Assembly (NCBI RefSeq): GCF_016717175.1
Contig: NZ_JADKFZ010000003.1
DNA: 64,000 nt
Strand: one strand, 5' to 3'
DNA from: Nannocystis sp.
Lineage (GTDB): Bacteria; Myxococcota_A; Polyangia; Nannocystales; Nannocystaceae
The notes beneath the pieces were generated by a model, which was given only the letters and a program-made list of their open reading frames with translations, was not told the origin of the DNA and made no database searches. Positions 10,050-53,934 of the stretch are shown here, in pieces; position 1 is the first letter of the stretch; the number at the start of each line of letters is the position of its first letter. The position numbers and the translations under genes are program-made.

Positions 10050-10247
10050 TCGCGCGCAGGCGCGCTCACGGCCGCGGCGGAGCACGCGCTCGCGCGCTGG
10101 CACAATCGCCGCACCGCGGGCCATTGCGCGCCGGGCCTACCTCCACGCCTGTGACAGCACACGCTCCCCCCGCAGATCCCTGCTAGCGAGGCGGCCGCGA
10201 CTCGGTTCTACTGGGGGCCGTTCCTGCGAACGAGTGCGAGGTTGGTC

Positions 10248-12371
10248 ATGACAACGAGAATCTATCTGCTCCTCACGGGTGCGTGTGTGCTCGCCACGGC
10301 GTGCAGCGACGACGGTCGCGCCGAATCCAACAGCAACACCGATGGCGGCAGCGGCAGCGTCAGCGCCAGCGCGACCGATGCCGACACCGAACCGGTGCCG
10401 ACCACCAACCCGACGACCGCGACCGACCCGAGCGGCGGCACGCCGGGCACCGCGAGCCAGACCAGCGAGGCGACCGAGGCCACCACCGTCGACCCGAGCG
10501 CGGGCACGGTGATGACCAGCGCCGACACGACCACCGGCGACGACCCGATCGTCGAGGTCGTGATCGATCCGCTCGACGCGATCGTCACCGTCATCGACGG
10601 CCAGATCCCCGCGCCGCTGCAGTACACCGCCAAGGGCATCACCCAGAACAACGTCGAGATCCCGCTCGACGGCACCTGGACCTACGACCGCCTCGACCTC
10701 GCCAGCCTCGGCGGCCAGTCCGGCTCCTTCACCGCGACGGGCTTCGCTGGCGGCAAGGGCACCGTCAGCTTCGACCCCGCCGGCGACCTCCTCCCGGTCC
10801 AGACCTCCGCCACCGTCAAGCTGCAGTACACCAGCGAGCCCGACCCCGTCGACCCCGGCATCAAGGACGGCTTCGGCATGGCCGTCGAGCCCGACCCGGC
10901 GATGGTCCTGCTCTACCCCTACGACAAGACCGTGTTCCCTCGCGGCCTCACCGGCCCGACCGTGCAGTGGAACGGCGGCGCCGCCGACGACCTCTACTAC
11001 ATCCACGTCTACAGCGACTTCTTCGAGTTCAAGGGCTACACCAAGGTCCCGCCGCCCTCGCGCTACAACTTCCCGAAGCTGCCCGCGGACGTGTGGCTCA
11101 AGCTCACCGCCTCGACCGAGGGCCCGGTGACCTTCGACATCCAGCGCTTCGACGGCAACAAGGCCTACCTCGCCAAGACCCAGACCTGGACGATCGCCCC
11201 CGCCAACCTCACCGGCGCCGTCTACTACTGGGAGGTCAACAACGGCAACGTCGTCCGCCTCAAGATCGGCGACCCCGCCCCGCAGCAGTTCATCAACAAG
11301 CCGCCGGGCGTCGCCTGCGTCGCCTGCCACAGCGTCTCGAAGGACGGCTCGCGCATCGCCGCCGCCTTCCACGGCGGCTACAGCCCGTGGAACGTGATCG
11401 AGGCCGCGACCGGCAACGTGCTCTACTTCCCGAACATCGCCTCCGGTTTCCAGGCCATCTCGCCCAACGGCTCGCACGTGCTGTGGGGCCAGTCCGACGA
11501 GACCGGCTCGCTCAAGCTGACGACCTTCGACAACGCCGCCGTGCTCACCACCCTGACCACCCCCGGCGGCAAGCCGGTCCACCCGGCCTGGGCCGGCGAT
11601 CCCAGCCGCGTCGCCTTCGCGCGCAAGACCGACGGCAACTGGCTCGACTTCAACAACAGCGAGCTGTGGACCGCCAACGTCGATCTCATGACCAACAGCT
11701 TCTCGAACGTGAAGCAGATCGTCGACAAGGCCCCGCCGCTCGGCACCACCACCTTCCCGACCTTCGCCCCCGACTCCGAGTGGATCGCGTTCAGCCGCCT
11801 CAACCAGGCCCGCACCCGCGGCGCCGTCACCGAGGTCTGGGTCACCAACTTCGACGGCAGCGCCCAGATGCGCCTCGACAAGGCCAACGGCCTCGGCATC
11901 ATCGAGCCCGGTCAGGACCAGACCACCTACGAGCCCACCTTCCTCCCGGTCTCGGTCGGCGGCTACTTCTGGCTCATCATCGGCAGCGAGCGCAAGTACG
12001 GCAACACCCTCACCGACACCAACCCCGGCAGCCGTCGCAAGCAGCTGTGGGTCTCGGCGATCGACGCCAACATCCAGCCCGGCCAGGACCCGAGCCACCC
12101 GCCGTTCTGGCTGCCCGGTCAGGAGCTCAACAACTCCAACATGCGCGGCGAGTGGGCGCTCGCCCCGTGCAAGCAGATCGGCGAGGGCTGCAACGCCGGC
12201 TTCGACTGCTGCGGCGGCTTCTGCTACCCGCCCGCCGAGGGCGAGGAGCCGACCTGCAACGACATGCCCGACAGCTGCTCGCACATGGGCGACGCCTGTG
12301 AGGTCGACGCGGCCTGCTGCGAGGGCGAGGGCAGCTGCATCGGCGGCTTCTGCTCGATCATGCCCGGCTGA
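10248..12371 (+). CDS. lipoprotein with beta-propeller-like region, CxxCH motif and C-terminal Cys-rich knot
   Basis: Lipobox LATAC. GAGGT sits 7 nt upstream of the ATG at 10248. GVACVACHSV is a CxxCH motif. FAPDSEWIAFSR and similar TolB/PD40-like strands are present. The C-terminus CKQIGEGCNAGFDCCGGFC... is Cys-rich. Confidence 0.6.
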   Translation: MTTRIYLLLTGACVLATACSDDGRAESNSNTDGGSGSVSASATDADTEPVPTTNPTTATDPSGGTPGTASQTSEATEATTVDPSAGTVMTSADTTTGDDPIVEVVIDPLDAIVTVIDGQIPAPLQYTAKGITQNNVEIPLDGTWTYDRLDLASLGGQSGSFTATGFAGGKGTVSFDPAGDLLPVQTSATVKLQYTSEPDPVDPGIKDGFGMAVEPDPAMVLLYPYDKTVFPRGLTGPTVQWNGGAADDLYYIHVYSDFFEFKGYTKVPPPSRYNFPKLPADVWLKLTASTEGPVTFDIQRFDGNKAYLAKTQTWTIAPANLTGAVYYWEVNNGNVVRLKIGDPAPQQFINKPPGVACVACHSVSKDGSRIAAAFHGGYSPWNVIEAATGNVLYFPNIASGFQAISPNGSHVLWGQSDETGSLKLTTFDNAAVLTTLTTPGGKPVHPAWAGDPSRVAFARKTDGNWLDFNNSELWTANVDLMTNSFSNVKQIVDKAPPLGTTTFPTFAPDSEWIAFSRLNQARTRGAVTEVWVTNFDGSAQMRLDKANGLGIIEPGQDQTTYEPTFLPVSVGGYFWLIIGSERKYGNTLTDTNPGSRRKQLWVSAIDANIQPGQDPSHPPFWLPGQELNNSNMRGEWALAPCKQIGEGCNAGFDCCGGFCYPPAEGEEPTCNDMPDSCSHMGDACEVDAACCEGEGSCIGGFCSIMPG

Positions 12372-18545: not shown

Positions 18546-18827
18546 TCAGCGCAGACACTCGTGGCTGATCTGCTCGCTCGAACCGGCCCGCGCGACGCAC
18601 TCGCGGGCCCCGGCCGGCAAGCGCACGCCCTCGCAGCGCGTCATCTCGGCGGCGTAGCGCTGCGCGAAGGCCTCCTGCTTGCGCTGCGTCAGCGCGGGGT
18701 CGCGATAACCCTGCTCGGCGAGCTCGAGCGCGACGATGCGATCGAGGATCTCCCGGCAATCGGCGGCCGTGGCCGGCTCGCCGCGGCACGCGGCGAACAG
18801 GAGCAGTGGGGCGAGGAGGCGGCGCAT
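18546..18827 (-). CDS. small secreted/lipoprotein, unknown function
   Basis: MRRLLAPLLLFAAC signal with lipobox, 94 aa, four Cys. Confidence 0.45.
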   Translation of the reverse strand: MRRLLAPLLLFAACRGEPATAADCREILDRIVALELAEQGYRDPALTQRKQEAFAQRYAAEMTRCEGVRLPAGARECVARAGSSEQISHECLR

Positions 18828-18832
18828 GGCGG

Positions 18833-19474
18833 TCAATCGAAGAGGTGATCGAGGCCCGCGCCGAGCCGGCCGCGGACCAGCGCAGTGAACGGGGCGCGGC
18901 GCGAGAAGTCGAGGCGCAGCGGCTCCTCCCACGCGGCACGGACCGGCCCGCGCGTCGCGCTGCCATGGGCGCGAAACTCGAGCACTCGTTCGAGGATCTC
19001 GTCGATCCGCTGGTTGATCGCCGCGCGGAGCTCGGCCGCCTTCACCGACTTACCGTTGTGCAGATAATGGAGCTCCCGGGCGGTGGCCACGGCGAGCGCG
19101 TCTGTGGCGTCGATGGCCGCGAACCGTGGGGCTTCGGAGTTGTCGCGAGCGTCGGCCTGGGTGGTCTGAGCGAGCCGCGCCTCGACATCGTCGCAGGTCG
19201 GATCGAGGAGGCCTTCTGGCGGAAACGCCGGCCGCCGCTCGTTGCAGTCGCGGCAGCTCGGGAACAGATTGGTCCATGCGTATGTGAGATCGGGGAATCG
19301 GGCCTTGGGCCGGCGATGGTCCACCGAATGTTCACGCACCGAGATCCGAATCTCGCAGAGGTAGCATTTGCCCAGGAAGTCGCGCAGGAGCGTGTCAACG
19401 ACGTCTGGCGCGTTGTACTTCGTGCCCGCCGCGAGGCTCTGCGGCGCCTCGGTCGAGCGACGCGCGTTGATCAT
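18833..19474 (-). CDS. HNH endonuclease (PtuB-like)
   Basis: Start reassigned to MINARR, which overlaps the upstream stop. HNH motif CYLCE...HSVDHRRPKA...WTNLFPSCRDCN. Lower local GC. Confidence 0.7.
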   Translation of the reverse strand: MINARRSTEAPQSLAAGTKYNAPDVVDTLLRDFLGKCYLCEIRISVREHSVDHRRPKARFPDLTYAWTNLFPSCRDCNERRPAFPPEGLLDPTCDDVEARLAQTTQADARDNSEAPRFAAIDATDALAVATARELHYLHNGKSVKAAELRAAINQRIDEILERVLEFRAHGSATRGPVRAAWEEPLRLDFSRRAPFTALVRGRLGAGLDHLFD

Positions 19475-20577
19475 GACGCACCTGCGAGGGCCCGCACCGG
19501 GCTGGGGTTTTGGATCTTCCACACCTCGAGCGCCAGGGTCCTGGAGCGCTCGCTGAGCGTGTCGCTCAGGGTTGTCATTTCCTGCTCCTCCGCGGCGCTC
19601 CGCGCCCGCCCGGCCAGCTCGCGCAGGCGCTGGAGCTTCGCGGTCGAGTCGAGGTCCATGTCGGCGGTGATACCGAAGTGGTGCGTCATCAGGGTGCCGT
19701 AGCGGACCCCCTGGAGGTCGGCACTGTCGGTCGCCTCGCGCTTGCCGAGATCGTACACGACGGCGTCGGGGATGCTGGCGATCACCGCGGGCGAGTGGGT
19801 AGCGACGATGAATTGAAAGGTGGGGAAGACGTCGGTGAGGAACGGCAGGATGAGCTCCTGCAGGCGAATGTGCAGGTGGGTCTCGATCTCGTCGATGAGG
19901 ACAATGCCAGCGAGCTGCTCCCGCTTGAACTCCTCGCGGTGGGCCTGCGACTGAAGGAGCAGCTCGAAGAAGATGCTGAGCGCCGCCGAATGGCCCTGGG
20001 CGAGCTGCGCGAAGGAGACCTCGCGACCGTCGCTGTAGCGCAGGCTCACCGTGAAGTTCTTGCGATCGAAGTGCAGGGCCAGCGCCGGATCCTCGAACAA
20101 ATGCGCCAGGTGTCCCTGCAGCTCCGCGAACCAAGCCTCGATCGCCGCGACCGCGGCCTGATCGCCGTCGTCGCGCGCGAACGACTGTTCGACCTTGCGA
20201 TTGACGAGATACTGCACCGTCTGCTGAGTGGCAGTGATCCGGCCGCGGAGAATGTTCATCCAGTCGATCTTGGAGGGACCCGAAACCTCCTCGATCCGCA
20301 GCAGTCGCTGGGCCTGAAAGAACGCCACGATCTGCCCGCGGCCACCGTCATGCGGCTGCTCGTCGAGGCCGACATGACACGGCGCACTCGGCTGCGCCGG
20401 CATGGTGAGCTTGGGGAGGGCAGCATGAATCAGCTCGAGCGCGCTGCTCTTGCCCGAGCCGTTCGGGCCCGTCAGGATCAGGTGGCGAAACTTCGTCCCG
20501 TCGCGTGGCGATAGATCGACATCCAGCCGCTCGATGCCGCGGAATTTGGCGATCGTGATCCTGCGAATGTAGCTCAT
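19471..20577 (-). CDS. ABC-type/AAA_21-like P-loop ATPase (PtuA-like)
   Basis: Walker A GPNGSGKSS, Walker B LIDEIETHLH, and H-loop ATHSP. GC is about 60% against the ~70% background. Confidence 0.7.
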   Translation of the reverse strand: MSYIRRITIAKFRGIERLDVDLSPRDGTKFRHLILTGPNGSGKSSALELIHAALPKLTMPAQPSAPCHVGLDEQPHDGGRGQIVAFFQAQRLLRIEEVSGPSKIDWMNILRGRITATQQTVQYLVNRKVEQSFARDDGDQAAVAAIEAWFAELQGHLAHLFEDPALALHFDRKNFTVSLRYSDGREVSFAQLAQGHSAALSIFFELLLQSQAHREEFKREQLAGIVLIDEIETHLHIRLQELILPFLTDVFPTFQFIVATHSPAVIASIPDAVVYDLGKREATDSADLQGVRYGTLMTHHFGITADMDLDSTAKLQRLRELAGRARSAAEEQEMTTLSDTLSERSRTLALEVWKIQNPSPVRALAGAS

Positions 20578-20622
20578 CGCGTGGCCAGGATAGCGCTTCT
20601 CGGTGACGGGGTGAACGGCGCC

Positions 20623-21501
20623 TCAGCGGTAGAAGTGCAGCCGGATCGGCGGGGAGACGGCGCGGATCGGGCGGCCCTCGGGGTCCTTCGCCGGGGTGAA
20701 GCGCGTGCGGCGAGCGCAGCGGATCGCGGCGGCGGCGAAGCCGTCGCCCGGGTCCTGCACGACCGTGCTGGACTCGACGCTGCCGTCGGCGCGCACGGTG
20801 ACGCGGATCGTCGCGGTCTGCTCGTCGATCGGGAGCTCGCTCGCCTCGTCGGGCCAGGGACAGTTCCACTCGTCGGTCGGCAGCGACACCGGGGCGGCTC
20901 GGCTCGGCTTGTTCGGCGTCGGTGGCGGTGTCGGTGACTCGGCGGGCGGCGGGGCGCCGACCTGCTTCGTGGGCGTCGTGCCGGTGCCGCCGGGGCTGGT
21001 GGCTCCGCCGGCGTAGGCGCTGCCCTGGCCCTCGACGAAGACCTCGCCGGTGAGGTCGAGCGGGGCGCCAGGGGCCGACACGATCTTGCCGGCGCGGGCC
21101 GGGGCGGCGCCGACTTTGAGCCGCACGCGCGGCGCGGGCTCGCTGGGCGGCGGCGTCGCGGAGGGCGTGGTGTCGGGCGCCAGGGCCGGTGGAGCGGCGA
21201 CGGGTGATGGCTCCGGGGGCTTCGGCGGGGCGAGCTCGACGATCTCGACGCGCGTGAGCTCGTCGTGGATCCGCGAGGCCAGGTCGGCGCTCCAGGCCTC
21301 GAGGCTCGGCTGCATGCCGACGATCCACACGCCGAGGGCCAGGTGCGCGAGCCCGGCGATCAGCGCGGCCGGCAGGCGTCGACGCGGCGCGGCGCGGCCC
21401 GGGGCGAACACGAGGTCGACGATGCGCGGGCTGTCCGTGGGGACAGGTGCACCTGGCGCGGAGGACAGGTCCGCGGGGACAGGTGCCTCGCGCTCGCTCA
21501 C
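20623..21501 (-). CDS. tonB: TonB energy transducer
   Basis: N-terminal TM helix, Pro-rich spacer, and a C-terminal TonB domain. Confidence 0.75.
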   Translation of the reverse strand: MSEREAPVPADLSSAPGAPVPTDSPRIVDLVFAPGRAAPRRRLPAALIAGLAHLALGVWIVGMQPSLEAWSADLASRIHDELTRVEIVELAPPKPPEPSPVAAPPALAPDTTPSATPPPSEPAPRVRLKVGAAPARAGKIVSAPGAPLDLTGEVFVEGQGSAYAGGATSPGGTGTTPTKQVGAPPPAESPTPPPTPNKPSRAAPVSLPTDEWNCPWPDEASELPIDEQTATIRVTVRADGSVESSTVVQDPGDGFAAAAIRCARRTRFTPAKDPEGRPIRAVSPPIRLHFYR

Positions 21502-22644: not shown

Positions 22645-22729
22645 GGCGCTACAGGGTCAGCCTTTCTTACGGGTCTCGCTGCGCTCGACGGTGTTGCAGG
22701 GCGTCGACGACGTGCATGGCGCTACAGGG
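22621..22729. repeat. 36-bp perfect direct repeat duplicating the exbB start region
   Basis: ttgcagggcgtcgacgacgtgcatggcgctacaggg at 22621..22656 and again at 22694..22729, with a 37-bp spacer. Confidence 0.85.
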
Positions 22730-23624
22730 GGTCGCGGGTGGGGCACTCGCCCTCGCCCTGGAAGTCGCCCAGCGTGCGCGCCTGGGCCTCAACGTAGTCG
22801 TGGGCGGTGACGATCGGGATGATCGCGCCGGAGAGGTTGTAGCCGAGCTCGGCGGGGAAGGCGACGGCGGCGGGGACCTGCTTGAGCTCGGCCAGCGTGG
22901 TCTCGCCGTCGCGATCGAGGTCGGCGTCGGCGATCCACTGCGCGCGGCGCTGCGTGATCTCGGCGCCCTGCGTGAGGGTGGTGAAGAACCAGTGGTCGCC
23001 GTGCACGGTCGGCTTGACCTGGGCCGTGCCGCCCGAGGGCACCGCGAAGCCGAGGCCGCCGCTCGGCGGGGCGCAGTCGGAGAAGCGGGTACCGGCGGCC
23101 AGACCCCAGCGGAAGCGGATCGTCGGCGCGGGCGTGCAGGTGACGGGCTCGCCGTGATCGCAGGATTCGCCGTCCGGCTTGCTGATCTCGCCCTCGAAGT
23201 AGACCGAGTAGCCGGCCTTCACCATGAGGTCGTGGTCGGCGGCAGCGGTGCCCTCGGCGGCCTTCGTGTCGGCGTCGGCGTCGGGCAGCGAGTAGGCGAC
23301 CTCGTCCCAGCGCACCGCCGCGACCTCGCTGAACTCGGCGAGCACGAGGCCGCCTGCCTGCAGGTGGAGGAGGTCGACGACGCGGGCGCCGGGGACCGTG
23401 AGGATGTCGTTGCCGTTGTCGCTGCGCTCGGCCGTGAAGTCGCCGACGACCACCAGGAACTTGTCGTAGCGGACGCTCCAGCCGTCGACGACCTGCTCCT
23501 CGCCGCTGCCGGCCTGCAGGCCCTCGGGGATGGTGTCCTCGGCCTCGATGAAGACCTGCACGCTGCCGATGCTGGTCTCGCAGGCGGCGAGGAGGATGAG
23601 CAGGGTGGCGATGGTGCTGCGCAT
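22722..23624 (-). CDS. lipoprotein, unknown function (TonB-locus accessory)
   Basis: Lipobox LLAAC. Located between the TonB-dependent receptor and exbB. Confidence 0.6.
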   Translation of the reverse strand: MRSTIATLLILLAACETSIGSVQVFIEAEDTIPEGLQAGSGEEQVVDGWSVRYDKFLVVVGDFTAERSDNGNDILTVPGARVVDLLHLQAGGLVLAEFSEVAAVRWDEVAYSLPDADADTKAAEGTAAADHDLMVKAGYSVYFEGEISKPDGESCDHGEPVTCTPAPTIRFRWGLAAGTRFSDCAPPSGGLGFAVPSGGTAQVKPTVHGDHWFFTTLTQGAEITQRRAQWIADADLDRDGETTLAELKQVPAAVAFPAELGYNLSGAIIPIVTAHDYVEAQARTLGDFQGEGECPTRDPL

Positions 23625-23638
23625 GGGGCTTGTGGCTT

Positions 23639-24361
23639 TCAGTCGTGGGTCCAGCGGAAGCTGGGCGGCTGGGTGGTCATGGCGAAGGCGATCGCGGCGT
23701 GGGCGGGGTCGCCGGGGCGGATGCTCGCGTCGAGGCCGGACGCGGCGAGGGCGTCGAAGTCGACGCCGGTCAACCAGGCGCGGGGGTCGAGGCGCAGCTC
23801 GAGGCGGCTGCCCTCGTCCTGGAATTCGCTGTGGGCCCGCACACCGACCAGGGCCGGGCTGCCGCGCAGCGGCGGGACGACGTCGACCTGCGCGTCGAAG
23901 TTCAGGGAGGCGCCGTCGCGGACGGCGGTGCCAGCGAGCCGGGCGGAGTGGCCGAGCGCGGCGAGGGCCTCGGGTCGCGACTGGGTGGTGAACCAGGAGA
24001 TGCCGTAGTCGAGCATCGCCGAGCGCGGCTCGCCGGGGCGGGCGTGGAGCTCACCGATCTCTGCGGCCGGGGCCAGCGCGTCGACGACGGCGACCTCGGT
24101 GAATTCGGCGAGGGCCACGTCGCACAGGTCGGGCGAGGCGGCCGCGGTGGCGCACACGTAGATCGGGCCGATCGCGACCTCGGCGCGGGTCAGCGTGACC
24201 TGCCAGTCGCCGACCGGGAAAGGCCCGGCGCCGGCGCCGACGGCCGCGAGCGGGTAGCTGAAGGGCTCGCCGCCGCTGCTGCCGCAGGCGAGCAGCAGCA
24301 CGGCCGCGAGGAGCCATCTGGGCTTGCTGTCTCTCGGGCCAGGCTGGGATCGTGCGGGCAT
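23639..24361 (-). CDS. lipoprotein, unknown function (TonB-locus accessory)
   Basis: Signal MPARSQPGPRDSKPRWLLAAVLLLAC. An alternative start at 24415 lies within a 54-bp tandem duplication. Confidence 0.55.
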   Translation of the reverse strand: MPARSQPGPRDSKPRWLLAAVLLLACGSSGGEPFSYPLAAVGAGAGPFPVGDWQVTLTRAEVAIGPIYVCATAAASPDLCDVALAEFTEVAVVDALAPAAEIGELHARPGEPRSAMLDYGISWFTTQSRPEALAALGHSARLAGTAVRDGASLNFDAQVDVVPPLRGSPALVGVRAHSEFQDEGSRLELRLDPRAWLTGVDFDALAASGLDASIRPGDPAHAAIAFAMTTQPPSFRWTHD

Positions 24362-24427
24362 TTTGAACCCGCCGGGCTTGCTGTCTCTCGGGCCAGGCTG
24401 GGATCGTTCGCGCATATCGGACCTGGT
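24320..24427. repeat. 54-bp in-frame tandem duplication at 5' end of lipoprotein gene
   Basis: gggcttgctgtctctcgggccaggctgggatcg... appears twice and duplicates RSQPGPRDSKP. Confidence 0.8.
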
Positions 24428-27168
24428 CAAAAGGACAGGGTGAGGGTACCGAGGACGCTGAGCGGCGGACCGGCGGCGAAGTGGCGCGCGGGCAGGCGCG
24501 AGGGCACGGGGGTCGTGCCCCAGTCGGACACGAAGGAGTAGACGCTGGCGGCGTAGCGGCGCGCGAGCAGGTTGTAGGCCTCGACGCCGAGCTCGATCCA
24601 CGACCAACGCAGCGACGCGGAGGCGTCGAGCAGGTACAGGGGATCGGAGCTCTGGCCGTACGGGAGCGGGCGCGCGGACAGGTAGTTGAAGCCGCCGCCG
24701 AGGCGCATGGCGAGCGGGTGAGCGCCGAGCTGCACGAGGTCCTTGCTGACGCCGAGGTCGAGGCGCACGACCACCGGCGGCACGTAGGGCAGCAGCTGGC
24801 CCGCGACGTAGGCGGGGTTCGGGTCCTCGACCGTGGCCGGCGGCGGGGCGGTGAGGATCGCGTGCACGTAGGTGACCGAGGTGGAGACTTGCAGCCACGG
24901 CCACGGGCGGGTCTGCAGGGCGGCGACCACGCCGCTGCGACGGGTCGGGCCGATCTTCTCGAGGCGGCCCTCCTCGGGGTCGAAGGCGAGGTCCTGGGCG
25001 AGGAAGGTGCCGTAGCCGGCGGCCGTGAGCTCGACGGGTCGGCGCCAGCGCGGGGCCAGGCGCACGCCGCCCTCGACGCTGTGCACCTTGGTGAAGGGGG
25101 CCCGCTCGCCCTCCTCGAGCTGACGCGCCTGCGGTGAGCGGTAGCCCTGGCCGTAGGCGACGAAGGTCTTGAGCCACGGCAGCGGCGTGACCTCGAGGGC
25201 GACGCGCGGGCCCGCGGCGACGCCGGTGGCGGTGCGGCGGTAGCCGACCAGGTGCGAGGCGACCTGGTAGGGGGCGATGAAGTTGCCGAGGTGATCGTCG
25301 ATGTCGTAGTGCAGGACGTCGGCGCGGGCGCCCCCGCGCAATTGCACGTACTTGCCGAATCGCAGCTCGAGGTCGGCGAAGAGGCCGACGTCGGTGGCGA
25401 GGATCTCGGCGTCGACGCGGTGGTCCCAGGTCTCGTTGCTGGGGGCTTGCAGCAGGTTCTGGCCCTGCCGGACGCGGTGGATGCGGGCGCTGCTGCCGAG
25501 CTCGAGGGTGGCCGCGAACCACCGCGCGGGCCGCCACCAGCCTGTCCGATGGGACAGGCGAAAACCGCCGCCGAGGTCGCGGTTCTGCTGCTCGATCAGG
25601 TCGCCGCGGCCGACCCAGGCGGGCATGACCATGCTGCGCTGCAGGTAGCCGGTGAAGTTCTCGCGGCTGTGGAAATCGACCAGCGCCGCGTGGGCGGCGA
25701 ACAGGGTGCGGCCGCCGGTCTCGCTGCGGTGCGTGAGCTCGAGCCCGAGTTGGCCGCGCGCGGCCGAGGCCGACTGGGCGCCGGCGCCGGGGTCGGGGTA
25801 GCGGTCGTAGAAGCCGACGCGGCCGGCCTCGACGTCGTCGTTGCGCAGCACGCCGGCCATGCCGGCGCGGGCGGCGTGGGCGGCGACCATCAGCTTGCCC
25901 GCCAGGCCGCCGGGGCCGGTGAAGGCGAACTGGCCGAGGCCGGTGCCGGACAGGGCGCCGCGGTTCATGCCGAAGCCGCTGCTGCGGCGGATCGCGGCGG
26001 CGGCGAAGGTCTCCTCGGACTGGCCGCGCGGGGCCCACATGGCGAGCTGGCGAAAGGTCCCGAAGGAGCCGCCGGTCGAGCGCAGGAGGAAGCCGCGCTG
26101 GGCCACGCCGAGGTCGAAGTCGATGCTCCCGGCGACCGCGAAGTCGCCCTGGTGCGGGTCGTACACGCCCTCGGTGACGCGGATCGATCGCACGACCTCC
26201 GGCAGGATGAAGTTGAGGTCGGCGTAGCCCTGGCCGTGCAGGTGCGAGATCTGGTTGATCGGTGCGCCGCCGACGGTGAACTCGATGTCCTGGCCGTGGG
26301 CCGCGTTGAAGCCGCGGAGGTAGATCTCGTGCGCGACCGCGTCGCCCTCGGGCCGCGAGACGTACACGCCGGGCGCCCGCGTGAGCATGTCGCCGCTGCT
26401 CTGCTTCGGCGCGGCGTTCAGGACCTCGGGGCCGAGCACGAAGTCGCTGGCGGCCCGCGGCGGCGGCGGGCGCCGGCCGTGGGTGGAGACCTCGATCACG
26501 CCCTCGTCGCCCGGGGACGGGGCCGAGCCGGCTGAAGGGACAGGTTGCGTGGAGCTGTCTGAAGGGACAGGTGCGACGGGGGCCGGCGCGCTGGCCGTGG
26601 GGACAGGTGCGGATGTGCTGGCTGAAGGGACAGGTTGCGTGGGGCTGTCTGAAGGGGCAGGTGCGACGGGGGCCGGCGAGCTGGCCGCGGGGACAGGTGC
26701 GGATGGGCTGGCTGAAGGGACAGGTCGGGTGGGAGCTGGCGAGCTGGCCGCGGGGACAGGTGACGCGGGGATGTCTGAAGGGACAGGTGCGGGAGGAGCC
26801 GGCTCGGCGAGCGGCGGCGGGAACACGAAGGGGACGCGGATCCGGGCCGCGACGGGGGCGCCGCCCTGGGTCGCGGGGGTGAAGCGCCACTGGCGGACCG
26901 CGGCGATCGCCGCGGCGTCGAAGGCCGGGCCGGCGCTGCTGGCCACGGTGACCTCGCCGACGTCGCCGTCGACGCCGACGGTGACCAGCAGCTCGACGCG
27001 CTGCGGGCTGCTGCTGGCCGCGGCGAGCGGGTAGGCGGCCTCCACTTGCTGCACCGGGCGCGGCGCCTGCACGGCCGGGGCAGCGGCGGCGCTGCGGGCC
27101 GTGAGGGCGGCGAGGAGCAGGGCGGCGCCGCAGCGGACGCGGCGCGCCGGTGTCAGGGCCGGGGGCAT
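24427..27168 (-). CDS. TonB-dependent receptor with N-terminal TonB_C-like domain and Pro-rich repeats
   Basis: After the signal peptide comes a TonB-C-like domain. Next are 30-aa Pro-rich repeats (PAPVPSD...), then a plug region, then a long beta-barrel ending in a terminal F. Confidence 0.8.
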   Translation of the reverse strand: MPPALTPARRVRCGAALLLAALTARSAAAAPAVQAPRPVQQVEAAYPLAAASSSPQRVELLVTVGVDGDVGEVTVASSAGPAFDAAAIAAVRQWRFTPATQGGAPVAARIRVPFVFPPPLAEPAPPAPVPSDIPASPVPAASSPAPTRPVPSASPSAPVPAASSPAPVAPAPSDSPTQPVPSASTSAPVPTASAPAPVAPVPSDSSTQPVPSAGSAPSPGDEGVIEVSTHGRRPPPPRAASDFVLGPEVLNAAPKQSSGDMLTRAPGVYVSRPEGDAVAHEIYLRGFNAAHGQDIEFTVGGAPINQISHLHGQGYADLNFILPEVVRSIRVTEGVYDPHQGDFAVAGSIDFDLGVAQRGFLLRSTGGSFGTFRQLAMWAPRGQSEETFAAAAIRRSSGFGMNRGALSGTGLGQFAFTGPGGLAGKLMVAAHAARAGMAGVLRNDDVEAGRVGFYDRYPDPGAGAQSASAARGQLGLELTHRSETGGRTLFAAHAALVDFHSRENFTGYLQRSMVMPAWVGRGDLIEQQNRDLGGGFRLSHRTGWWRPARWFAATLELGSSARIHRVRQGQNLLQAPSNETWDHRVDAEILATDVGLFADLELRFGKYVQLRGGARADVLHYDIDDHLGNFIAPYQVASHLVGYRRTATGVAAGPRVALEVTPLPWLKTFVAYGQGYRSPQARQLEEGERAPFTKVHSVEGGVRLAPRWRRPVELTAAGYGTFLAQDLAFDPEEGRLEKIGPTRRSGVVAALQTRPWPWLQVSTSVTYVHAILTAPPPATVEDPNPAYVAGQLLPYVPPVVVRLDLGVSKDLVQLGAHPLAMRLGGGFNYLSARPLPYGQSSDPLYLLDASASLRWSWIELGVEAYNLLARRYAASVYSFVSDWGTTPVPSRLPARHFAAGPPLSVLGTLTLSF
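26531..26800. repeat. 90-bp tandem repeat x3 (coding, Pro-rich linker of TBDR)
   Basis: gctgaagggacaggttgcgtgg... recurs at 26531, 26621 and 26711. Confidence 0.8.
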
Positions 27169-51545: not shown

Positions 51546-51668
51546 TCGGACGCGGACCGGGGAACACGCAGGACTTGCACGTGGGTGCAAGGGGTTCCGC
51601 TGGCGGCGAAGCCCATGCTGGATCTCATGGCGAGGGCCGCGGCACGGGTCTTGCTGGGTGGACCCGTC

Positions 51669-52439
51669 ATGAAGTCAGGCACCCTCCTGCTGTCGTCGTT
51701 GCTCGGGCTAGCGAGCGTTCTGGTGTTCCCCCAGCGATCGGTCGTGGCCTCGGCGGAGTCTGTCGCTCAGGGAGCGGCGGTCTTGCGCGTCGCCGACGAA
51801 CGTGCGGCCCGGTTCCCGGATCAGACATATACGGCGAACATGGACATCTACAAGCACGGCGAGCTGCGCTCGACGCTGGTGTTCTCGATGGCGATGAAGA
51901 ACCTCGAGAAGCAGCTGATCCGCTTTGTTGAGCCCGGTGACGTCGCGGGCATGAAGATCTTGATGGAGAATCGCGACACCATTTATATGTACAGCCCCGA
52001 GTTCCAGAAGGTCCGGCGGATCGCGGCCCACATGCAGAACCAGGGCTTCCTCGGGAGCGAGTTCACGCCCGAGGACATGATCCTGGCCCGGCTGTCGCCG
52101 AGCTTCGACGCCGACCTGATCGGCAAGACCGGCACCGAGACGGCCCTGGTCCTCACGCCGAAGAGCGGCGCGACGGTGTCCTTCTCGAAGCTCGAGATCT
52201 TCATCGATTCGACCGTCGGGGGCATCTCGCGGATCCACTACTACGACGTCGGCGGCAGCCACGTCCGCACCCAGCTCCGGGAGGTCTGGAAGCGCTTCGA
52301 GGACACCCAGATGCCGACCCAGATCCGCATGAAGAACCTCGTGACCGGCGACGAGACGATCATCCGCCTGTCCAATATCGACGTGAAGTCGCCGGTCCCT
52401 GACGATTTGTTCTCGCGCCGCACCCTGATGAGCGGGTGA
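51669..52439 (+). CDS. outer-membrane lipoprotein-sorting (LolA-like) protein
   Basis: Signal peptide and a LolA-like fold family commonly paired with MMPL transporters. Lower GC. Confidence 0.6.
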   Translation: MKSGTLLLSSLLGLASVLVFPQRSVVASAESVAQGAAVLRVADERAARFPDQTYTANMDIYKHGELRSTLVFSMAMKNLEKQLIRFVEPGDVAGMKILMENRDTIYMYSPEFQKVRRIAAHMQNQGFLGSEFTPEDMILARLSPSFDADLIGKTGTETALVLTPKSGATVSFSKLEIFIDSTVGGISRIHYYDVGGSHVRTQLREVWKRFEDTQMPTQIRMKNLVTGDETIIRLSNIDVKSPVPDDLFSRRTLMSG

Positions 52440-52623
52440 GCGGGTGAGGGCCCTGGCCGTCGCGCCGGGTCTGGGCGATAGTGCCCACAGGACGCGGGTC
52501 CCCGCGGGCCGAGGTCGATGGGCGAGGCGGTAGGCGCCGGGTTTCATCATTCGCGCGGGTCCCCGCGGGGCGAGGTCGATGGTGCGCCGGTGATCGGGCT
52601 GATATCCTCGCGCTCCGGTCGGC

Positions 52624-53934
52624 GTGCGAGCTCCTGGACCTTCGATCGTGCCGCGCTTCGTCGGCGACTCGCGTGACATCGTCGGGCCCCTCGACGAGGC
52701 CGCCTTCGACGAGCAGCGGGCTCTGCTGAGCGGCGAGTTCACCAAGCTGACGGCGTGGATCTTGATCGTCCTTACGGTGGTGCTGTGGCCGACGGACGCG
52801 CTGCTGTTTCGCGGGCAGCCGGCGGTGCTCGAGTTCTTCGCCCGCTGGCGGCCGCCGATCCTCGCGCTCGCGGTGATCACCCTGCTGGGCTTCCGCTTCT
52901 CCGCGACGGTACGCGGGCGGGCGGCGTTGTTCGCGATGATCGCCCTCACCATGGGCGCGGCGATCTGCGGCGGGGCGCTCGGCCAGCTCGGGGCGCCCGG
53001 CGAGGTCTACTATCCGTGCTCTTATCTGCTATCGCAGGCGACGGTGCCGCTGATCGTCCGGCCGGTCGCGCGCCTGGTCGGCAGCATCGTCGTGCCGCTG
53101 GCCTTCACCCTGCCATACGCCTACTGCAACCCCAGCTATTTCACGGACAATCCTTACGCGATCTCGCTGCTGGTATTCCAGCTGCTGGCGATCGTCGGTG
53201 GATTCGGGCTCGGCCACAGCCTCTATTCGCTGGTCCGCGGCAACTTCGCGCGGCGCGAGGCGCTCGCGGCCCAGGCCGCCGAGCTGGCCCGGGCGCGGGA
53301 GAAGACGGAGCGGCTGCTGCTCAACATCTTGCCCGGGACGGTGGCGGCCCAGCTCAAGGACGGGGCCGCCACCATCGCCGAGGCGCACGCGGATGTCACG
53401 GTGCTGTTCGTCGACATCTGCGGGTTCACGCGCCTGTCGACCGGGTCGGGCGCGGCGGAGGTGGTGCAGATGCTGAACAAGGTGTTCTCGGCCTTCGACG
53501 CGCTGGTCGAGCTGCACGGCGTCGAGAAGATCAAGACGATCGGCGACGCGTACATGGTCGCCGCGGGCCTGCCGGAGCCGCGCAGCGACCACGCCCGGGC
53601 GATCGCCGACCTCGCCCTCGATATGCTCGCGGTGATCCGGGGGCTATGTGATCCGGCGGGGGCCCCGATCCAGGTGCGTATCGGTGCACATTGCGGGCCG
53701 GTGATCGCGGGGGTGATCGGGCGCAAGAAGTTTATCTATGACCTTTGGGGCGACACGGTCAATACGGCGAGTCGGATGGAGTCGCACGGCGAGCCGGGGA
53801 CGATCCAGATCACCGATGCGCTCGCCCGTCGTCTCGGGCCCGCGTACCGCTGCGAGCTGCGCGGGGCGATCGCCGTCAAGGGCAAGGGCGAGATGGTCAC
53901 CCACTTCCTGCGCGGCGTCGCCGGGGGGCCTTAG
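52624..53934 (+). CDS. membrane-anchored class III adenylate/guanylate cyclase
   Basis: Six TM helices, then a CHD domain (FVDICGFT, IKTIGDAYM, GDTVNTASRMES). Confidence 0.8.
   Translation: MRAPGPSIVPRFVGDSRDIVGPLDEAAFDEQRALLSGEFTKLTAWILIVLTVVLWPTDALLFRGQPAVLEFFARWRPPILALAVITLLGFRFSATVRGRAALFAMIALTMGAAICGGALGQLGAPGEVYYPCSYLLSQATVPLIVRPVARLVGSIVVPLAFTLPYAYCNPSYFTDNPYAISLLVFQLLAIVGGFGLGHSLYSLVRGNFARREALAAQAAELARAREKTERLLLNILPGTVAAQLKDGAATIAEAHADVTVLFVDICGFTRLSTGSGAAEVVQMLNKVFSAFDALVELHGVEKIKTIGDAYMVAAGLPEPRSDHARAIADLALDMLAVIRGLCDPAGAPIQVRIGAHCGPVIAGVIGRKKFIYDLWGDTVNTASRMESHGEPGTIQITDALARRLGPAYRCELRGAIAVKGKGEMVTHFLRGVAGGP

Follow-up and report, generated by a model that had tools for sequence, protein, structure and literature searches.

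What are the two overlapping genes that lie between tonB and a small lipoprotein gene at positions 18,833 to 20,577 of a 64,000-nucleotide stretch of Nannocystis sp. DNA (contig NZ_JADKFZ010000003.1 of assembly GCF_016717175.1; the whole stretch is called the window below)? We conclude that they very probably form a stand-alone Septu (type I, PtuA/PtuB) anti-phage cassette that was acquired horizontally and inserted into the coupled tonB–lipoprotein junction in a single Nannocystis lineage. This reading draws directly on the gene structure, the family of both proteins by sequence and predicted fold, their intact motifs, purifying selection and an accessory, mobile distribution. A first-pass annotation, made from the letters of the window alone, had likened the pair to Septu, and the likeness was borne out by PADLOC profiles, the nearest solved chains, the predicted folds and the conserved gene order. 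All features lie on the minus strand; the two genes and their junction are as follows.

19471..20577, minus strand: ptuA, encoding a 368-amino-acid (aa) ABC-type (AAA_15/AAA_21) ATPase, a short stand-alone Septu PtuA; from the open reading frame (ORF), Pfam, PADLOC and AlphaFold2 (AF2)/Foldseek.
18833..19474, minus strand: ptuB, encoding a 213-aa HNH (beta-beta-alpha-Me) nuclease with a helical C-terminal domain (CTD); from Pfam, PADLOC and AF2/Foldseek.
19471..19474, minus strand: ATGA stop/start overlap of ptuA and ptuB (translational coupling); from the sequence.

The 368-aa ptuA frame is read from the furthest-upstream start codon possible, and the 213-aa ptuB frame is nested within a longer, mechanically called ORF. 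As in Septu systems generally, ptuA comes first and ptuB adjoins it in the same orientation, in one operon. The overlap between stop and start that was described at first pass is present as ATGA at 19474..19471, and the same 4-bp overlap recurs in six other loci (L001, L003, L086, L089, L091 and L093), that is, in every relative examined. The two genes are real and not chance ORFs, because they have E-values down to 1e-74 in hidden Markov model searches, hundreds of homologues, confident structure models and a ratio of nonsynonymous to synonymous divergence (dN/dS) of 0.18–0.35.

The ATPase matched the Pfam families AAA_21 (2.5e-17) and AAA_15 (5.5e-17) above the gathering score. In PADLOC its best match was the PtuA profile PDLC00268 (1.5e-74, 250 bits), and 22 of its 25 top matches were PtuA models. 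The closest sequences in the PDB were PtuA of the retrons Ec78 and Ec83 and of E. coli Septu (8ee4), and a profile built from 60 family members aligned end to end with Ec83 PtuA (positions 4–358 against chain residues 63–509). The AF2 model of PtuA (pLDDT 88.7, pTM 0.78) led to the same family: the best 50 Foldseek matches in the PDB were all PtuA chains, headed by Ec83 9e90_A (1.2e-14, TMq 0.64), with E. coli Septu 8eea (about 4e-13) and 8ee4 also among the top matches.

Several related ATPases appeared further down these lists, raising the question of whether the pair belongs to another ABC-ATPase defence system (PARIS AriA/AriB, MADS mad3, a Gabija/OLD-like system or the PADLOC candidate PDC-M01) and only looks like Septu. 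Weaker PADLOC matches of the ATPase were AriA (1.3e-19), mad3 (4e-20) and ATPase_I-A (2.2e-28), the partner also matched PDC-M01B (1.3e-10), and AriA structures were reached by sequence at 3.7e-4. PARIS AriA (PDB 8UX9, 8V45-49) is indeed related, being an ABC-type (AAA_15/21) ATPase of a defence system that acts as scaffold and restraint for a partner nuclease. Nevertheless, AriA lies far behind PtuA as a sequence match, the matches to the PtuA and PtuB profiles are far stronger (1e-74 and 2e-26) and extend along the full length, and the partner in the window is an HNH protein with a PtuB-type helical CTD rather than the Toprim/DUF4435 protein AriB. The fused Toprim domain of OLD/GajA is absent, as are a methylase or other MADS components nearby. 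We therefore consider membership of another such system very improbable.

The motifs of an ABC-type ATPase are complete in the window PtuA, and the GPNGSGKSS, DEIE and ATHSP sequences picked out at first pass were all read in place and are invariant or nearly so in 60 homologues.

20443..20469, minus strand: Walker A/P-loop, G37-PNGSGKSS-45 with K43; from the sequence; G37, N39, G40, G42 and K43 invariant in the 60 homologues.
19987..20004, minus strand: ABC signature-like motif L192-AQGHS-197, aligned with LSDGQR of Ec78 PtuA (phmmer against 9vh1_D); G195 invariant, L192, A193 and H196 nearly so.
19882..19893, minus strand: Walker B with the catalytic Glu, D229-E230-I-E232; from the sequence; D229, E230 and E232 invariant.
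19789..19803, minus strand: H-loop A259-THSP-263; from the sequence; all five residues invariant.
19510..19653, minus strand: three C-terminal helices, residues 309–356; from DSSP on the AF2 model (H309-322, H328-344, H346-356).

Judging from the predicted model, the helices at residues 309–356 would correspond to the CTD of three helices with which PtuA grips PtuB in the solved PtuAB complexes. His196 of the signature-like motif sits at the position of Gln361 in Ec78 PtuA and of a Leu in E. coli Septu.

The partner protein is an HNH nuclease of the PtuB type. It exceeded the Pfam HNH cut-off (3.7e-6; 27.4 bits against 21.4) and matched the PADLOC PtuB profile PDLC00331 at 2e-26 over residues 1–202 of 213. 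Its nearest sequences in the PDB were PtuB chains. The CxxC...DH...N...CxxC pattern that had been reported for this 213-aa protein is present and invariant or nearly so in 56 homologues.

19241..19366, minus strand: HNH core C37xxC40...D52-H53...N69...C74xxC77-N78, a Cys4 site with an H-N-N catalytic triad; from the sequence.

Across the 56 homologues C37, C40, H53, C74 and N78 are invariant, and D52, N69 and C77 nearly so. The AF2 model (pLDDT 96.3, pTM 0.91) has a helical C-terminal half, with helices at residues 126–204, and its eight significant Foldseek matches were all full-length PtuB chains (TMq 0.65; best 9u9y_H, 6.5e-7); the generic HNH domains that followed (Gme HNH, Cas9 HNH) matched the core only. 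The catalytic residues of both proteins are thus intact (in PtuA, K43, D229, E230 and H261; in PtuB, H53, N69, N78 and all four Cys); Septu EcB88 depends on its Walker A/B and HNH residues for defence (PMC13096335). Profile searches for AAA_15/AAA_21 and HNH and a run of PADLOC had been suggested at first pass, and since both returned matches of the expected kinds, the objection that the pair might lack similarity to PtuA/PtuB-type profiles falls away.

PtuA and PtuB also occur as the effectors of type I-A retrons (Retron-Eco7/Ec78 and Ec83; PDB 9KJX, 9NNB, 9E8Z and 9E90, among others), in which the reverse transcriptase (RT) and multicopy single-stranded DNA (msDNA) hold PtuAB inactive until phage degradation of the msDNA frees it. 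The window pair shares the ATPase core and the PtuB fold with these effectors, where a PtuA dimer binds one PtuB through the CTDs. By E-value the closest solved structures are Ec78/Ec83 PtuA and PtuB chains (9e90_A and 9u9y_H, as given above), and the best NCBIfam matches of the pair are the retron-Ec78 PtuA and PtuB models together with TIGR02646. Against a retron, tonB and the lipoprotein gene are the immediate neighbours, and Pfam annotation of the relatives revealed no RT among syntenic neighbours within about 10 kb; an RT stood beside the pair in 0 of 5 contexts examined; and Rfam found no RNA family in the whole window. The retron NCBIfam models, NF041760 and NF041761, are equivalog models for the Ec78 type, and their cut-offs were missed by a wide margin.

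The architecture of PtuA points the same way. Retron-Eco7 PtuA is composed of a domain at the N terminus (NTD, residues 1–63), an ATPase domain (64–254 and 311–442), a coiled coil (255–310), a linker (443–483) and a three-helix CTD (484–550), and its NTD, which touches the RT and msrRNA, is required for defence by the retron (PMC12673091). Residue 3 of the window PtuA aligns with residue 65 of Ec78 PtuA; therefore the 63-residue retron NTD is absent. So are about 100 further residues that include the msDNA-wrapping coiled-coil/helical flap. With neither an adjacent RT nor an adjacent retron RNA, neither NTD nor flap, and scores below the equivalog cut-offs, the retron explanation is effectively refuted, and we regard it as extremely improbable. 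One smaller difference concerns the nuclease: only one Cys of the second pair is visible in the alignment of Ec78 PtuB, the only PtuB compared in this respect, whereas the window PtuB has the complete C74xxC77.

The closest known stand-alone Septu systems are E. coli PtuAB and Septu EcB88 (PMC13096335); the structures of the former (PDB 8EE4, 8EE7, 8EEA and 8SUX) are reportedly those of Li et al. 2024 in Nature Structural & Molecular Biology (NSMB). The window pair and E. coli PtuAB are both two-gene ptuA-ptuB operons without an RT, and both combine an ABC-type ATPase having Walker A/B, an H-loop and a three-helix CTD with an HNH nuclease of about 215 aa having a helical CTD; the predicted folds match 8eea/8ee4 at E-values of 4e-13 (PtuA) and 8.8e-4 (PtuB). 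E. coli Septu PtuA likewise lacks the retron-type coiled-coil/helical flap and NTD (PMC12673091). The two systems differ in sequence, with an identity of about 15%, in the signature-motif residue (His here, Leu there) and in the length of PtuA.

At 368 aa, the window PtuA is shorter than PtuA of E. coli Septu (465 aa) and Ec78 (550 aa), as the first-pass annotation had remarked. The shortfall of about 100 residues lies ahead of the signature motif, where residue 182 of the window protein corresponds to residue 347 of Ec78 PtuA and profile position 159 to residue 228 of 8ee4; past the signature-motif region the length is essentially equal to that of the compared chains. Overall, the 355 positions of the family profile span 447 residues of Ec83 PtuA. 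The short protein retains the ATPase core and the three-helix CTD. Relatives in its clade measure 350–440 aa and come mostly from Myxococcota (Nannocystis, Sorangium, Minicystis and Polyangium), and the PADLOC PtuA models cover 294–733 positions. The length therefore falls at the short end of the known PtuA range but within it, and the suggestion that it marks a reduced or divergent variant did not hold, since 350–440 aa is usual in the clade.

The pair separates two genes that adjoin each other in relatives, neither of which is part of the system.

20623..21501, minus strand: tonB, the last gene of a TonB-dependent receptor–237 aa–300 aa–exbB–exbD–tonB operon; from ORFs and Pfam annotation of the syntenic genes in L003.
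18546..18827, minus strand: gene of a 93-aa lipoprotein that starts 5 nt past the ptuB stop; from the sequence.

Between the end of the tonB stop at 20623 and the ptuA ATG at 20577 lies a spacer of exactly 45 bp, with both genes on the same strand, just as had been noted at first pass, where the strand (minus) had gone unstated. This closeness makes it conceivable that the pair serves TonB-dependent uptake instead of immunity, as a lineage-specific housekeeping or accessory component of the operon; it might, for instance, supply a nuclease that processes DNA or nutrients and is co-regulated with TonB. The 5-nt gap to the next gene, the lack of a terminator-like site in the spacers and the persistence of the arrangement in several related metagenomic lineages with flanks of 79–94% identity would all suit such a role.

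With the 300-aa protein (22722..23624), which is specific to the operon, as query we retrieved 80 genome loci, and we drew the genomic context of the cassette from relatives at 73–75% PtuA identity; a 99%-identical PtuA relative belongs to Nannocystis sp. The full exbB-exbD-tonB-lipoprotein arrangement was found in 10 of the 80 loci, and in nine of the ten (L011, L013, L021, L030, L043, L052, L060, L082 and L085) the lipoprotein gene comes straight after tonB, without the cassette. The two genes are 12 nt apart in Nannocystis sp. L052 and overlap by ATGA in L021, L030 and L043. Besides the window, the cassette lies between tonB and the lipoprotein gene only in L006, a metagenome-assembled genome of Nannocystis sp., and in the metagenomic loci L003-5 and L086-88. 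It also occurs in at least four other contexts: between genes for an FAD oxidase and a D12 methylase (L001/2), after p450/AF_1499 (L089/90), between the isoleucyl- and histidyl-tRNA synthetase genes (IleRS and HisRS; L091/92) and beside a DDE transposase in Sorangium (L093). Copies in these four other contexts are 55–74% identical to the window cassette.

These data strongly disfavour a housekeeping role in the TonB operon. Nine relatives have the same operon without the pair, so it is not a locus conserved in all relatives, which the first-pass annotation had held against a defence role; four contexts with the cassette have no TonB genes; its composition and synonymous divergence (dS) are unlike those of the operon; and its products are cytoplasmic ATPase and nuclease types with no evident signal peptide, from a family with demonstrated anti-phage activity. 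We leave this explanation only a very slim chance.

The downstream junction of the cassette, TGA-CCGCC-ATG, is nearly identical at all four occupied sites, with one or two spacer bases differing in L006 and L086. The tonB-ptuA spacer measures 45 bp in the window, 151 bp in L003, 61 bp in L006 and 108 bp in L086. Searches of these spacers for donor remnants or target-site duplications, by blastn-short and tblastx against all fetched loci, returned only self-matches and GC-rich noise, and in the window the cassette is not bordered by repeats, an integrase or a transposase. Viral contigs scanned with the family alignment contained no close relative (best 38% identity, over a partial stretch). The 151-bp spacer at L003:9850-10000 itself resembles the C-terminal tail of a coding sequence (…LRDRAAALALIDRLREAADQAWGPAPAP, then a stop) that is unmatched in any fetched locus.

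Some of the genes around these sites deserve a separate word. The 93-aa lipoprotein gene has no Pfam family and, across Nannocystaceae and Polyangiaceae, follows tonB closely or in translational coupling (12-nt spacer or ATGA), the loci considered being window 18546-18827 and the nine empty sites; it looks like an unrecognized conserved final gene of the TonB operon. Upstream, window 22722-27168 (minus strand) encodes a TonB-dependent receptor with a TonB_C domain at its N terminus and, after it, a long repetitive linker rich in Pro, Ala and Ser, and also two lipoproteins (about 237 and 300 aa) without a Pfam family; the 80 genome loci of the 300-aa gene come from across Polyangia, and in many of them its neighbour is a receptor gene of similar kind. 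In the FAD oxidase context, L001:4543-5586 (plus strand), directly downstream of the cassette, encodes a type II D12 (Dam-like) methyltransferase (PADLOC MTase_II, 9e-153). A D12 methyltransferase 69% identical to it is encoded at L091:2247-3314 (plus strand), 4.7 kb upstream of the cassette in an unrelated context, and adjoins an unannotated 383-aa gene that could be its endonuclease. There may thus be a recurrent restriction-modification/Septu neighbourhood; the window holds no methylase like that of L001.

The cassette also stands apart from its surroundings in composition. Its GC content is 66.5% (PtuA 65.3, PtuB 68.2) against a window mean of 72.0% with a standard deviation (sd) of 2.3 for segments of equal length, and GC at third codon positions (GC3) is 86/83% in PtuA/PtuB against 90–98% in the neighbouring genes. 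It is the lowest-GC 1.7-kb segment of the 64-kb window, 2.4 sd under the mean; 0.2% of sliding positions are as low, every one of them overlapping the ptuA-ptuB pair. The first-pass annotation was right that the pair is GC-poor but put the values at about 60% against 70%, a gap of 10 points where we measured about 5.5. The second lowest-GC stretch, window 51585-53934 (plus strand), holds a LolA_like lipoprotein-sorting gene (63.9% GC) and then a class III adenylate/guanylate cyclase, 32 kb from the cassette. The latter matches PADLOC PycC (Pycsar cyclase) moderately well (9.7e-19), which most likely reflects nothing more specific than its cyclase domain; an effector was not identified with it.

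Divergence at synonymous sites sets the pair apart as well. Between the window and L003, L006 and L086, the flanking genes are 77–94% identical with dS of 0.14–0.39, while PtuA/PtuB are 73–80% identical with dS of 0.70–0.87, a two- to fivefold excess over each of the flanking genes. The copy in L001, where the context differs, is as near to the window copy (74%/72%) as the other tonB-site copies are. This pattern fits both one old insertion followed by fast evolution, aided by weaker codon bias, and allele replacement at a fixed site. At 0.18–0.35, dN/dS indicates purifying selection in both genes, which are therefore maintained.

Maintenance could in principle serve the cassette itself. As a selfish addiction (toxin–antitoxin-like) or decaying module, an ATPase-restrained nuclease toxin would be kept by post-segregational killing and have no current anti-phage role. 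In E. coli, PtuAB is toxic when the retron is absent (PMC12673091), Pfam labels AAA_21 a 'putative AbiEii toxin, type IV TA' (toxin–antitoxin) family, and the cassette moves between loci. Decay, by contrast, is at odds with the dN/dS values, the intact catalytic residues and the conserved coupling; phage phenotypes have been demonstrated for stand-alone Septu systems (PMC13096335); and, as the mechanisms of abortive infection and toxin–antitoxin systems overlap, addiction is a re-description more than a true alternative. We judge it quite unlikely.

How the cassette would be transcribed is suggested by its upstream spacer.

20587..20615, minus strand: promoter-like element in the 45-bp spacer, TTCACC (20615..20610), 17 nt, TATCCT (20592..20587), then 9 nt to the ATG.

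Equivalent elements at the same distance from the ATG are found in L003, L006 and L086 (TTCACC/TTTACC/TTCACG with TACTCT/TACCCT), and others in unrelated contexts, GTACAC-type with TACGGT in L001 and TTGACA with TACTCT in L089. L091 has no such element; there the pair begins 12 nt past IleRS. The spacing leaves no room for a Shine-Dalgarno sequence, and the transcript would therefore be leaderless or nearly so. Read from these letters, the element suggests that the cassette carries its own promoter and produces a near-leaderless ptuA-ptuB mRNA. A consensus promoter/terminator scan called no promoter upstream of ptuA and no terminator in either spacer; its two terminator-like matches and one promoter-like match fall inside coding sequence, at chance expectation. 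Because neither spacer has a terminator-like site, read-through from tonB and into the lipoprotein gene is plausible.

Two further observations concern the rest of the window. ARAGORN called a 97-nt tRNA-Pro(CGG) at 10371-10467 (minus strand), inside a 709-aa high-GC3 ORF on the opposite strand (10242..12371); this long call has no Rfam tRNA support and is probably a false positive. At 58100-60450, about 2.4 kb received no gene call from the GC3/GC2 filter, though a 724-aa ORF exists there (58225..60399, minus strand).

It is by analogy with the characterized E. coli Septu and retron-associated PtuAB that we infer complex formation, trigger, substrate, promoter use and an anti-phage phenotype for the window pair. 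PtuA would dimerize head-to-head around ATP through K43, D229/E230, the signature-like LAQGH and the H-loop H261, and the paired three-helix CTDs of the dimer would clamp the helical CTD of one PtuB; in characterized systems, PtuA dimers bind ATP and their CTDs sandwich one PtuB. The clamped HNH nuclease would be kept in an ATP-bound, quiescent complex, in line with the quiescence of ATP/ADP-bound oligomers and the inhibition by ATP of the DNase of E. coli Septu PtuAB (PMC12673091, PMC13376987). Phage infection would then release or activate the nuclease; the triggers proposed for E. coli Septu are falling ATP and/or phage structural proteins such as the tail fibre (PMC12819146). Once active, the nuclease may cut nucleic acid and so abort or curb phage replication: the E. 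coli systems nick and degrade DNA in vitro (PMC12819146, PMC12673091, PMC13376987), and Septu EcB88 displays abortive-infection behaviour with cutting of tRNA-Tyr at its variable loop in infected cells (PMC13096335). A weak promoter of its own probably drives a near-leaderless ptuA-ptuB transcript of the cassette, to which read-through from the tonB operon may add, and the downstream lipoprotein gene would now rely on transcription through the cassette.

Several points weigh against a stand-alone Septu with this mechanism. Identity to characterized PtuA and PtuB is just 15–20% or so overall, and the curated NCBIfam cut-offs were missed by PtuA (NF041760, 93.7 against 500) and by PtuB (NF041761, 27.7 against 150; TIGR02646, 37.7 against 52.15 bits). 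As PtuA is about 100 residues shorter than that of E. coli Septu, it may assemble differently and fail to form the hexameric 6:2 complex. At the signature-motif position the ATPase-active Ec78 PtuA has Gln and the ATPase-inactive E. coli Septu PtuA has Leu (PMC12819146); the His of the window protein gives no guide to ATP hydrolysis. At 8/12 the promoter-like element matches the consensus weakly and the promoter scan passed over it, and the raised dS may come partly from weaker codon bias rather than from a separate history. Nor does a defence island surround the cassette in the window and lend guilt by association: no other recognizable defence gene lies near it, and apart from the PycC cyclase the other low-GC genes of the window have no PADLOC matches. 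On balance we still hold a horizontally acquired Septu cassette to be the very probable explanation. Across 3,229 myxobacterial genomes, Septu is reported to be one of the dominant systems of defence.

TonB-dependent receptors are common phage entry routes. A bolder proposal is that the short-PtuA clade of Myxococcota represents a minimal Septu, working as PtuA2:PtuB1 rather than as an inflammasome-like 6:2 assembly, and that the TonB-operon site couples defence to the expression of the TonB-dependent receptor. The absence of an NTD and of a coiled coil, about 100 fewer residues in ATPase insertions and the signature-motif His are the features behind the first part of this proposal, which as a whole we think unlikely.

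The locus is accordingly an ordinary member of a known system, in a clade that the PADLOC PtuA/PtuB models already cover and of a kind that the usual annotation programs for defence genes would flag automatically; it adds a correctly assigned Septu to a Nannocystis genome and has little significance beyond annotation. Within that compass, it offers a clean occupied-versus-empty example of a two-gene defence cassette that has entered a translationally coupled operon junction without disrupting the operon, apparently with its own promoter. Structural studies of the restraint of PtuB by PtuA could find a convenient minimal system in the short-PtuA clade, which would be a practical rather than a conceptual gain.

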